Numbered from the stretch's first letter, positions 38,742 to 45,155 are shown. The stretch: 64,000 nt of DNA from Candidatus Saccharimonadota bacterium (GCA_016700315.1 CP065013.1:705449-769448); one strand, 5' to 3'. The notes: generated from the letters alone by a model not told the origin. Program-made: numbers and translations.

Positions 38742-38912
38742 CGACCCAACCAGAAACACCCTTTTCCTTTTCTAAAAAATCTCTGCGGGGGAAATTCAAA
38801 AAATATGCAAAGGGCTTTCTGGGCGGGGCGCAGCACAGCTCTGCTGTGCTAGGCGGCGGGGCCGTACTTTTCAGCATTTTTCCTCAAAATAGGTTCTAGC
38901 GGAGTTGTAAAA
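38742..38912. repeat. 171-bp inverted repeat, right arm
   Basis: Reverse complement of 37198-37368. Confidence 0.9.
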
Positions 38913-39038
38913 CTTCACCAAAAATGGACTAAAGTCAGAATTGTCGCCCGAAAGAACGGCTTTTTCTTTGGTTTTTGCTGCGCAAAACCAAAGAAAAAAC
39001 GGCGCAGCGCGCCGCTAATTCCAATTTTTGTCCATTTC

Positions 39039-39125
39039 TGGTGCGCGAGAGAGGACTTGAACCTCCAAGCTTTTTAAGGCACAGCCACCTCAAGGCTGCG
39101 TGTTTGCCAGTTTCACCACTCGCGC
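39039..39125 (-). tRNA. tRNA-Leu (anticodon GAG), CCA encoded
   Basis: The reverse complement reads GCGCGAGTGGTGAAACTGGCAAACACGCAGCCTTGAGGTGGCTGTGCCTTAAAAAGCTTGGAGGTTCAAGTCCTCTCTCGCGCACCA. Anticodon loop TTGAGGT, long variable arm. Confidence 0.9.
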
Positions 39126-39812
39126 GTTTGCACGATTTATTCTATCATTTTTATCTCTTGCTATGAAGCTAAGTAGTTTGTCTTTTTTTCTCCTTAGAGA
39201 AAATTTTTCTGAACAGGCCGTGCTATACATAGCATTACTAATCTTTTCTGAGTCTAGCTTGGCATAAGCGAGCGTATACGCTCTGTTGGATTTTTTTATA
39301 GACCCTTGAGTAGTACCACATAAGATTTTATTTTGTTTCTGAAGCCATTTAATATAATCGAGACTGGCAGAAGTGAAACCAGTGTAGTACATATAACTAG
39401 ACCGCCATCGCTTATCCGTGTATGCATAAGTAGTGCCGTCACCATCGAAATACCCTCTTAAAAAGTCGCCCCAGTACTCGTTTGGCAGTTTTACTTGTTT
39501 GATTGTCTTGCTCTTTCTTGGAGTAATCCCATGAGTATTAAAAAAGTCGTACAATGATACATCGCTAAATTGCCAGCAAAAGGCAAGGTTTCCTAGCTCT
39601 CCCTTTTTGATTTGGACCTTCTTACCTATCCCGCCTAGCGCCTCCTGGCAATATTCAATTATCTCATAGTCTTTTGAGGTTATATTAAGGTGGCGGCCGT
39701 TGCTAATAAGACAACCGTCAGAAGCGAATAGCCCCGCAATGTATGCTAACTCCTGTGTCCATAAGTAACTTTTTGTTTTCTTGTATCTTCTCATGGTATA
39801 AGTATATACCAA
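39090..39812 (-). CDS. LAGLIDADG homing endonuclease (double-motif, free-standing)
   Basis: 240 aa. Motif 1 YIAGLFASDGCL, motif 2 FLRGYFDGDGTT. The last 36 nt including the stop lie inside the 5' half of tRNA-Leu(GAG) on the same strand. Confidence 0.85.
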   Translation of the reverse strand: MVYTYTMRRYKKTKSYLWTQELAYIAGLFASDGCLISNGRHLNITSKDYEIIEYCQEALGGIGKKVQIKKGELGNLAFCWQFSDVSLYDFFNTHGITPRKSKTIKQVKLPNEYWGDFLRGYFDGDGTTYAYTDKRWRSSYMYYTGFTSASLDYIKWLQKQNKILCGTTQGSIKKSNRAYTLAYAKLDSEKISNAMYSTACSEKFSLRRKKDKLLSFIARDKNDRINRANARVVKLANTQP

Positions 39813-39851
39813 TTTGTTTTTTAAGAGTTGCTTGTGTACAATACTTTCAAA

Positions 39852-39928
39852 GGGCGCTTAGCTCAGTTGGCTAGAGCACCTCGTTTACACCGAGGGGGTC
39901 GCGGGTTCAAGTCCCTCAGCGCCCACCA
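39852..39928 (+). tRNA. tRNA-Val (anticodon TAC), CCA encoded
   Basis: GGGCGCT acceptor, D arm GCTC-AGTTGGCTA-GAGC, anticodon arm CCTCG-TTTACAC-CGAGG, T loop TTCAAGT. There is one C-U mismatch in the T stem. Confidence 0.88.
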
Positions 39929-39942
39929 AGTAGTCATTTTCC

Positions 39943-39970
39943 GAACCCCGGCCTGCAAAGGCCGGGGTTC
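39943..39970 (+). terminator. strong GC hairpin after tRNA-Val (GAACCCCGGCC-TGCAAA-GGCCGGGGTTC)
   Basis: 11-bp perfect stem with only a weak T tract after it. It marks the start of the GC-rich block. Confidence 0.5.
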
Positions 39971-40141
39971 GTCGTTCAACGCTTCCGACCGCTATCGCCA
40001 GCATCGTCACCAGATCGGTGAGCATACCCTTTTCCGGGCGCCGCCGAGGCACCGCGTGTGATAGGGTACCCGAAACGCAAGAACCCCGGCAGCTTGCGCA
40101 TCCTACCCCGGAGTCAAGTGCTGGTGCTGGGTGTCGCCAAG

Positions 40142-40474
40142 CTAGGCAGCGTCCGTTGCTAGCCCGTCATCGCGAATACTTTGACGGAATATCCCATCCC
40201 GTTGCCGCTCCAGCAGATTGACAGCCTCAATCTGTGTCGGTTCTAACGTACCCTCCAGCGCCGCCTGGATAAATGCCACGTCAGTCTCATAAGCCGGTCC
40301 ATATGCCCCGGCTAAGGCTGCCAACGCCACTTGCTCCGAGATGTTCGGCGCGCCCCGCCACGCATCGCATGGGATTATTGCACCAACATCGCCGTTGGAT
40401 GCAGACAGTATGTCGTCATACTCTGCCTCCAGAGCGGAGTAGAATTTTGGACTTCTGGTCATTTCTAAGGCCAT
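40142..40474 (-). CDS. hypothetical protein in the GC-rich block (110 aa), possibly a gene remnant
   Basis: Most plausible of several overlapping ORFs in a GC-rich segment. No Shine-Dalgarno sequence and no recognised domain. Confidence 0.3.
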   Translation of the reverse strand: MALEMTRSPKFYSALEAEYDDILSASNGDVGAIIPCDAWRGAPNISEQVALAALAGAYGPAYETDVAFIQAALEGTLEPTQIEAVNLLERQRDGIFRQSIRDDGLATDAA

Positions 40475-40634
40475 CTGTCTGGTCTTACTTGGTAACGCGA
40501 ACGGTCCCGCCAGACCCTTTCGGTAGACATTATACCACGTCCCGTGCGAAATTTGTGGTGGCCTAAATGCTACATAATTTCCATCATGTTAAGTAAGATG
40601 CTACAATATAATCACTAAACCTAAGGGGGTAAAA

Positions 40635-42153: not shown

Positions 42154-45155
<3,002 letters not shown>

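Follow-up and report, generated by a model that had tools for sequence, protein, structure and literature searches.

Insertion of a homing endonuclease gene usually destroys the target of the enzyme that the gene encodes. Here we analysed a gene for a LAGLIDADG endonuclease that overlaps an intact tRNA-Leu(GAG) gene in Candidatus Saccharimonadota bacterium (GCA_016700315.1, CP065013.1:705449-769448; this stretch of 64,000 nucleotides (nt), with positions counted from its first letter, is hereafter called the window). The same fold, size (about 200-235 amino acids (aa)) and pair of catalytic aspartates are found in I-Tsp061I, I-DmoI and the enzymes of rRNA insertion sequences in the candidate phyla radiation (CPR), and the CPR enzymes also share their host phylum with the present family (Tsurumaki et al. 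2024, PMC11270868). The rRNA enzymes interrupt their rRNA target, in introns or insertion sequences, whereas the present gene has no intron, lies at a tRNA gene and leaves that gene intact; the survey of CPR insertion sequences makes no mention of tRNA (PMC11270868). Group I introns of bacterial tRNA genes occupy the anticodon loop (bioRxiv 10.1101/2020.01.27.920355). These introns, carried by tRNA-Leu(UAA), fMet, Ile and Arg genes, lie in the same region as the break point of a tRNA-Leu fragment at our locus, namely the anticodon loop. Our locus differs in having no ribozyme and in concerning the isoacceptor GAG instead of UAA, and its tRNA would be restored by duplicated DNA, not by RNA splicing.

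Judged by layout, the nearest analogy is with organellar endonuclease genes that are accompanied by a partial duplicate of the invaded gene. The C-terminal replacement in Allomyces atp6 is one example. The intron of Ophiostoma minus atp6 likewise comes with a partial duplicate of the downstream exon (PMC7902536). In this organellar type the endonuclease gene stands between a partial and a working copy of the host gene, and its open reading frame (ORF) is fused in frame to sequence of the host gene; partial and working copies also flank the ORF at tRNA-Leu(GAG), and likewise at tRNA-Phe. The organellar cases concern mitochondrial protein genes, whereas here a bacterial tRNA is involved, the duplicated part is the 5' part with a promoter, and the ORF starts and stops in the anticodon loop.

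The Seg and Mob enzymes of phage T4 are free-standing endonucleases with intronless homing, and SegB lies in a tRNA gene cluster (PMC2988022, PMC13096335). The present gene resembles them in its probable promoter of its own, its position between conserved genes and its linkage to tRNA, and its flanks could serve as homology arms. The phage enzymes belong to the GIY-YIG and HNH families and not to LAGLIDADG, and their immunity relies on target polymorphism, which was not found in the tRNA here. Integrase-type islands insert into tRNA genes by means of tyrosine or serine recombinases, and the segment that they duplicate is the 3' end of the tRNA gene. As at our locus, the duplicated segment keeps the essential tRNA intact and leaves a partial direct repeat on the far side of the insert, but no integrase is present here and the 5' part is duplicated instead. 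No description of a LAGLIDADG family linked to tRNA-Leu(GAG) was found in the full-text literature, in which most subscription journals are not covered, and the conserved tRNA-embedded architecture appears to be undescribed.

An endonuclease gene between two tRNA-Leu sequences

The locus consists of a decayed tRNA-Leu fragment (nt ~13-38), the endonuclease ORF, a tRNA promoter and a complete tRNA-Leu(GAG), in this order. Our preferred reading, to which we assign a probability of roughly 0.55, places the endonuclease gene inside a tRNA gene that suffered a break in the anticodon loop and was restored by duplication of its 5' half. The features of the locus are as follows.

39852..39928, plus strand: tRNA-Val(TAC), detected by ARAGORN and Rfam (63.8 bits)
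39789..39815, minus strand: degenerate copy of tRNA-Leu(GAG) nt ~13-38, from alignment
39090..39794, minus strand: LAGLIDADG endonuclease ORF, 234 aa plus stop, counted from ATG
39708..39743, minus strand: LAGLIDADG motif 1, YIAGLFASDGCL, residues 18-29, with catalytic Asp26
39429..39464, minus strand: LAGLIDADG motif 2, FLRGYFDGDGTT, residues 111-122, with catalytic Asp119
39139..39167, minus strand: promoter of tRNA-Leu(GAG), within the 3' end of the ORF, from a promoter search
39090..39125, minus strand: overlap of ORF and tRNA-Leu, 11 codons (ARVVKLANTQP) plus TGA
39039..39125, minus strand: intact tRNA-Leu(GAG) with encoded CCA end, detected by ARAGORN and Rfam (50.8 bits)
38998..39016, minus strand: terminator-like hairpin of 8 bp (6 G-C) followed by a T run, 3' of tRNA-Leu

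A first, sequence-only reading had placed a double-motif LAGLIDADG ORF of 240 aa between tRNA-Val and tRNA-Leu(GAG), with its last 12 codons and stop inside the latter. The placement is borne out by both motifs and by Pfam, ARAGORN and Rfam. The length holds when the ORF is begun at an in-frame TTG at 39812 (39090..39812, minus strand); this TTG lies 5' of the ATG and falls in the tRNA remnant. The start is likely the ATG at 39794, as in public gene calls (P0001), which gives 234 aa. The overlap at 39090-39125 is real, covering 36 nt on the same strand, but comprises 11 sense codons plus the stop rather than 12. The stop codon TGA (39092-39090) is U33-G34-A35 of the tRNA-Leu anticodon loop. 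The left neighbour of the ORF is tRNA-Val(TAC), transcribed divergently; on the opposite strand and just 5' of the ORF, it is the usual left flank in Saccharibacteria, being seen in many of their loci.

Relatives were sought with one genome per species, and the linkage counts refer to the best 80 relatives among 466 genomes, which were picked by similarity, a choice that favours intact copies. In many loci, a copy of tRNA-Leu(GAG) nt ~13-38 stands directly 5' of the ORF start. It takes in the D-loop (AATTGGTAGAC), one strand each of the D-stem (3') and the anticodon stem (5'), and the anticodon loop (CTTGAGGT), and lacks the acceptor stem (nt 1-12). An example of the Parcubacteria-type fragment is ATTGGTATACGCTTATACTTGAGGT, followed immediately by ATG; fragments of Saccharibacteria, including that of the window, are more decayed. 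In the window, AAATTGGTATATACTTATACC followed by ATGAGA (39815-39789) aligns with AAACTGGCAAACACGCAGCC and TTGAGG of the real tRNA, and the start codon ATG occupies the position of the anticodon-loop TTG. The ORF of the window begins in one anticodon-loop sequence and ends in the next, 700 nt away. The D-loop octamer was present in 51 of 84 segments upstream of the ORF, compared with 1.9% of 11,016 background segments (p 3e-65), and a composite of D-loop and loop motif in 27 of 84, compared with 0.17% of the background (p 2e-53). Neither motif was found 5' of 17 ORF-less tRNA-Leu(GAG) genes. Both intact members linked to tRNA-Phe carry the tRNA-Phe D-loop 11-mer CTCAGTGGTAG at the ORF start, and in one of them the ORF ends at the U33-G34-A35 TGA of tRNA-Phe(GAA). 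Since these members carry a Phe-type fragment, the architecture was re-created at a second tRNA.

A hexamer resembling a -10 element (TATACT or TATATA) lies 6-8 nt before the ATG, and no Shine-Dalgarno sequence precedes the ORF; the fragment probably holds the -10 promoter element of the ORF. A plain free-standing homing endonuclease in the spacer 5' of the tRNA promoter could also be proposed. Its run-on into the tRNA would be the accident of a missing stop, and its remnant a D-loop-like extended -10 element (TGGTATACT). In 33 of 74 loci, such an element, which fits TGnTAnnnT, is located 6-9 nt 5' of the ATG; stop positions range from -38 to +42, and a different ORF without any remnant occupies the same spacer at one metagenomic locus (L092). 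We consider this proposal improbable, given that the Parcubacteria-type match extends through anticodon stem and loop (up to GGTAGACGCTATATACTTGAGGT followed by ATG), well past a -10 box, that tRNA-Phe-linked members have a Phe-type D-loop instead, that the ORF start maps onto the anticodon-loop TTGAGG, and that a 63-nt in-frame spacing to the tRNA is conserved. The view of TGGTATACT as a mere extended -10 promoter was revised, as the match runs on through the anticodon loop. A gene lodged in a split and rebuilt tRNA gene is a better description than the earlier one, free-standing in a spacer, because the upstream tRNA half holds the start codon.

The sequence-only reading had found neither intron nor exon halves around the ORF. 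The first part stands: Intron_gpI gave no match at E<=10 between 38400 and 40400, scans of the window and of 20 related loci gave none that reached the gathering threshold, and Rfam (E<=10) found no RNA family other than tRNAs around the ORF. Nor is the gene embedded in an intein. The second part does not stand, as the tRNA-Leu segment of nt ~13-38 resembles an exon half. This leaves the idea of remains of a group I (or other) intron in the tRNA-Leu gene whose exons are still spliced, which is largely refuted and to which we give very little credence. The upstream fragment does end at the anticodon loop, the site of bacterial tRNA group I introns. Besides the missing intron match, only 63 nt, all of them coding, separate the protein core from tRNA nt 1, leaving no room for a ribozyme. 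Two exons in need of splicing are not seen either, the downstream tRNA being complete and the upstream fragment degenerate and without nt 1-12.

The protein and its relatives in Patescibacteria

The protein matched the Pfam family LAGLIDADG_3 (PF14528; E 4e-13, 49.8 bits against a cut-off of 22.5). An AlphaFold2 (AF2) model built on 89 homologues (predicted local distance difference test (pLDDT) 94.5, predicted template modelling score (pTM) 0.90) has a double alpha-beta-beta-alpha-beta-beta-alpha, pseudo-dimeric layout with helices and strands in the expected order. Its only poorly ordered part is the tRNA-encoded tail (residues 224-234, pLDDT about 62), which is predicted to be unstructured. 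The best match in the PDB was I-Tsp061I, by sequence (E 5e-4) and by structure (Foldseek, E 4e-11), and the closest solved structures were I-Tsp061I, E-DreI (I-DmoI/I-CreI), intein endonuclease domains and I-AniI. In an alignment of 89 proteins, Asp26 and Asp119 do not vary, and they are kept in 84/84 and 86/86 loci, respectively. The ratio of nonsynonymous to synonymous substitution rates (dN/dS) was 0.045-0.08 (three unsaturated pairs), and an internal, in-core stop was found in only 1 of 86 loci. Taken together, sequence and model indicate a regular member of the monomeric double-motif LAGLIDADG family, and the substitution pattern indicates strong purifying selection. The earlier suggestion of a stranded enzyme does not agree with the invariant catalytic residues and the low dN/dS. 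The WhiA model of Pfam (PF14527) reached 14.2 bits, below its threshold of 23.2, and the protein contains no helix-turn-helix (HTH) domain of the kind found at the C terminus of WhiA-type proteins. PADLOC and PHROGs gave generic endonuclease matches only, and NCBIfam none. A phage origin was rejected: viral relatives are at most 41% identical (mostly 25-33%), and 0 of 78 lie near a tRNA.

Relatives occur in 466 Patescibacteria species genomes, with 420 homologous protein clusters. The best 80 are nearly all from Patescibacteria, mainly Saccharibacteria; the other hosts are Kaiser-, Nomura-, Davies-, Doudna-, Andersen-, Terry- and Sungiibacteria and Paceibacterota. The next same-strand feature downstream is tRNA-Leu(GAG) in 75 of 80 loci (L070 is masked by Ns), the exceptions being two tRNA-Leu(CAG), three tRNA-Phe(GAA), one of them degraded, and one contig end. 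This linkage, together with the 420 clusters, shows that the arrangement of ORF and tRNA is not due to chance, and supports the earlier view that the endonuclease is tied to the tRNA locus.

The overlap itself is not peculiar to this genome, and it varies among relatives. Of 78 loci, 34 have the ORF stop inside the tRNA, either at U33-G34-A35 or further 5' in the D-arm, and the remaining 44 have it 2-38 nt 5' of the tRNA; the full range is -38 to +42 nt relative to tRNA nt 1. The U33-G34-A35 TGA serves as the ORF end in the window and nine relatives, including one tRNA-Phe(GAA) locus. The position of the protein core relative to the tRNA is much steadier than that of the stop: 23 loci have precisely 63 nt between a conserved RK motif and tRNA nt 1, and 44 of 78 have 60-67 nt. 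Because this spacing is conserved, the junction of ORF and tRNA is inherited as a block in which only the stop drifts; because the stop differs among loci, the exact ORF end is unlikely to be functional.

Some individual loci deserve mention. Two (L056 and L066) come from metagenome-assembled genomes with the label Gammaproteobacteria. Over ORF and tRNA, L056 shares 80% identity with L048, a Patescibacteria locus, and the label is likely due to mis-binning. In L015 (2960-3000 and 3658-3744), the endonuclease gene adjoins tRNA-Leu(CAG), but its upstream remnant is ATGAG, of the GAG type, and an ORF-less tRNA-Leu(GAG) lies 1.9 kb off, which suggests an anticodon switch or a move between genes for Leu isoacceptors. 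A conserved TTGACA was observed at -13 to -8, 7-8 nt before the start of tRNA-Leu, in nine Parcubacteria-type loci (L039, L043, L052, L055, L057, L058, L071, L073, L080); it is too near the tRNA start to be the -35 box of the tRNA.

Promoters, transcription and neighbouring sequences

The tRNA promoter of the window consists of TTCATA, a 17-nt spacer and TG-n-TAGAAT, with the -10 hexamer ending 13 nt before tRNA nt 1, and TTCATA/TAGAAT is the sole promoter-like match in 38900-40000. Saccharibacteria relatives have an extended -10 element (TGnTATAAT) within the ORF, in the last ~25 nt before the tRNA. The same element is present at the ORF-less locus L098, and the promoter therefore belongs to the tRNA. 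Since it sits in the 3' end of the ORF, the tail of the protein is translated promoter and tRNA. No terminator was found between ORF and tRNA, whereas terminator-like hairpins lie 3' of the latter, and transcripts of the ORF should thus extend through the tRNA. The hairpin at 38998..39016 is likely the end both of the joint transcript and of the tRNA transcript. Cleavage of precursors by RNase P at tRNA ends and rescue of non-stop mRNAs by trans-translation are established biology. Co-transcription followed by RNase P cleavage, as proposed earlier, is thus plausible, but with its own promoter in the ORF tail the tRNA is independent of co-transcription. A non-stop outcome would be a side effect and not a designed control, because the stop position varies among relatives.

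At one metagenomic locus (L093, about 2490-2546), the ORF is lost and the last ~50 nt of its 3' end (ending in LKVQKMLAIVGKS), with the tRNA promoter, are left before tRNA-Leu(GAG). By its sequence, this is a deletion footprint, indicating that loss of the ORF occurs and is limited by the embedded promoter.

On the 3' side of tRNA-Leu, positions 38959-39000 form a 17-bp, A/T-rich perfect hairpin with spurious matches to microRNA families on both strands. It is probably a two-way terminator between tRNA-Leu and a convergent, kinase-like gene of 189 aa. On the other side, a GC-rich stretch (39929-40598; 0.56-0.62 versus about 0.45 nearby) directly follows the 3' end of tRNA-Val. Contigs 99-100% identical to the window share it, and a 97.4%-identical strain (L189) has 246 unrelated nt in its place. 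Between the forms with and without this stretch, there are 5-7 differing positions in the 3' part of tRNA-Val (39902-39919). Its sole ORF (40142-40474, minus strand, 110 aa) has no Pfam match. The stretch resembles a small island that has integrated next to tRNA-Val, at its 3' end.

Proposed insertion, inheritance and persistence

Under the preferred reading, the endonuclease gene would have inserted into the tRNA-Leu(GAG) gene, on the 3' side of its anticodon loop. A second promoter and 5' half downstream of the insert, brought by the element or left by a tandem duplication followed by a deletion, would have kept the essential tRNA functional. The orphan 5' fragment would then have been reused, giving the ORF its -10 element and, by a change of the anticodon-loop TTG to ATG, its start codon; with the -10-like hexamer so close to the ATG and no Shine-Dalgarno sequence, the mRNA is probably leaderless. 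The ORF would cross the tRNA promoter and the new 5' half up to the first in-frame stop, here the UGA of U33-G34-A35. RNase P, cutting at tRNA nt 1, would detach the stop together with the 11 codons before it, and the resulting non-stop mRNA would hold the enzyme level low. The most probable target of the enzyme is DNA of tRNA type surrounding the anticodon loop (TTGAGG in Leu, CTGAAG in Phe), and its gene may occasionally have moved to other tRNA genes, being now inherited vertically in most lineages. Deletion of the ORF would be constrained because its last ~60 nt hold the tRNA promoter. Cleavage by the enzyme and current homing are both putative.

Loci of tRNA-Leu(GAG) without the ORF were recovered from metagenomes with a 46-nt tRNA pattern. 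Among 22 such loci, 16 are empty of the endonuclease ORF, 5 carry it intact and 1 is the footprint L093; ORF-less sites include L098, L091, L100 and L109. One of the 16, L092 (426-1130, contig Ga0209541_10226277), has a different ORF of 234 aa in the spacer between tRNA-Val (minus strand) and tRNA-Leu(GAG) (plus strand), with an N-terminal HTH_23 domain followed by a LAGLIDADG-like 'LYWAEGGK', and no upstream tRNA remnant. The spacer between these two tRNAs may be a hotspot for several kinds of insert. Empty and filled sites have spacers too diverged for their comparison to yield an exact insertion point. Nor did the neighbouring genes lead to an ORF-less allele in the same species: contigs with the 189-aa neighbour stop before the tRNA, and those with LemA or the 110-aa ORF end at tRNA-Val or, further on, carry the endonuclease gene (L189, L208).

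Several observations speak against a gene that is, or recently was, homing into the tRNA. The ORF-less tRNA-Leu(GAG) of L091, L100 and L109 are identical to ORF-bearing ones or 1 nt off over 87 nt, and a polymorphism inside the tRNA that would confer immunity was accordingly looked for and not found. The rebuilt locus also holds everything present in the naive locus and regenerates any target inside the tRNA. With the target regenerated and the tRNAs nearly identical, both site disruption and tRNA polymorphism fail as means of self-immunity. Protein identity between loci tracks that of the flanking genes (mean 51% versus 51.5%, r 0.42, 846 pairs). Within the species, the proportion of synonymous differences (pS) was 0.026 for the ORF and 0.020-0.042 for its neighbours, and no two close relatives were found of which only one has the ORF. 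As for the fragment, a complete orphan 5' half (nt 1-38), expected after a recent insertion, was found at no locus, and the remnants are more like one another than like the adjacent tRNA; they travel with the ORF and may be kept only as a promoter.

The ORF is present in every lineage seen of the window's species. Its divergence fits a long vertical residence, with no sign of recent transfer. Recent horizontal transfer between species was rejected, as protein identity is about that of the flanking genes, with L058/L110 (87% versus 62%) as the only outlier pair. So was recent transfer within the species, to which raw identity (99.4% versus 97.4%) might point: pS equals that of the neighbours, and the low identity of the flanks is mostly due to ligA (43155-45129). 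Compared with L189, ligA has a pS of 0.148, versus 0.02-0.04 in three adjacent genes, which points to a recombined segment.

Much of this evidence would also be expected of a domesticated gene, whose product would have ceased to be a selfish homing nuclease; the gene would be a vertically inherited host gene kept for a cellular function at the tRNA-Leu(GAG) locus or close by. Remnant and overlap would then be fossils of an ancient insertion. Such a role could be binding tRNA-type DNA, regulating the locus or cutting incoming DNA with tRNA-like attachment sites. The dN/dS of 0.045-0.08, the in-core stop in only 1 of 86 loci, a protein divergence equal to that of neighbouring genes between and within species, the presence in all strain lineages seen and the lack of a distinct target in ORF-less alleles all agree with domestication. 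Known domesticated LAGLIDADG proteins such as WhiA have lost their catalytic residues, whereas both catalytic aspartates are invariant here and the WhiA model stays below threshold. The distribution is patchy, with an intact copy in only 5 of the 22 metagenomic loci that share the tRNA 5' half, and the architecture was re-created at tRNA-Phe and tRNA-Leu(CAG); the choice of the top 80 loci by similarity, moreover, favours intact copies. The active site has been retained, the distribution is patchy and targets have switched; on these grounds we place a mobile element ahead of domestication, which we regard as a serious, if less probable, rival.

We also put forward, tentatively and as more doubtful than the preferred reading itself, that these genes form a distinct class: elements resident in tRNA genes that split the tRNA at the anticodon loop and supply a new promoter and 5' half, whose ORF begins and ends in anticodon-loop sequence, and which do not persist by classical homing with site disruption. 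Their persistence might instead depend on a recognition that tells rebuilt from naive loci, or on an activity on tRNA-type DNA that benefits the host. If true, this would explain the housekeeping-like conservation of the gene across Patescibacteria.

Where a homing gene would ordinarily destroy its target, the duplicated DNA here would restore the gene together with any target within it, and yet the enzyme has remained intact throughout a bacterial radiation of very large size. Should the reading be correct, introns and inteins would be joined by a third means of housing an endonuclease gene inside an essential gene, with tRNA DNA reused as promoter, start codon and stop codon. The family would then supply a compact group of natural LAGLIDADG enzymes, probably reading sequences of tRNA genes, that could serve as engineering scaffolds. 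It would also carry a warning for annotation, as the tails of such proteins would be translated promoter and tRNA. For the Patescibacteria family itself, it would provide a testable case for the long-standing question of how homing genes persist after fixation.

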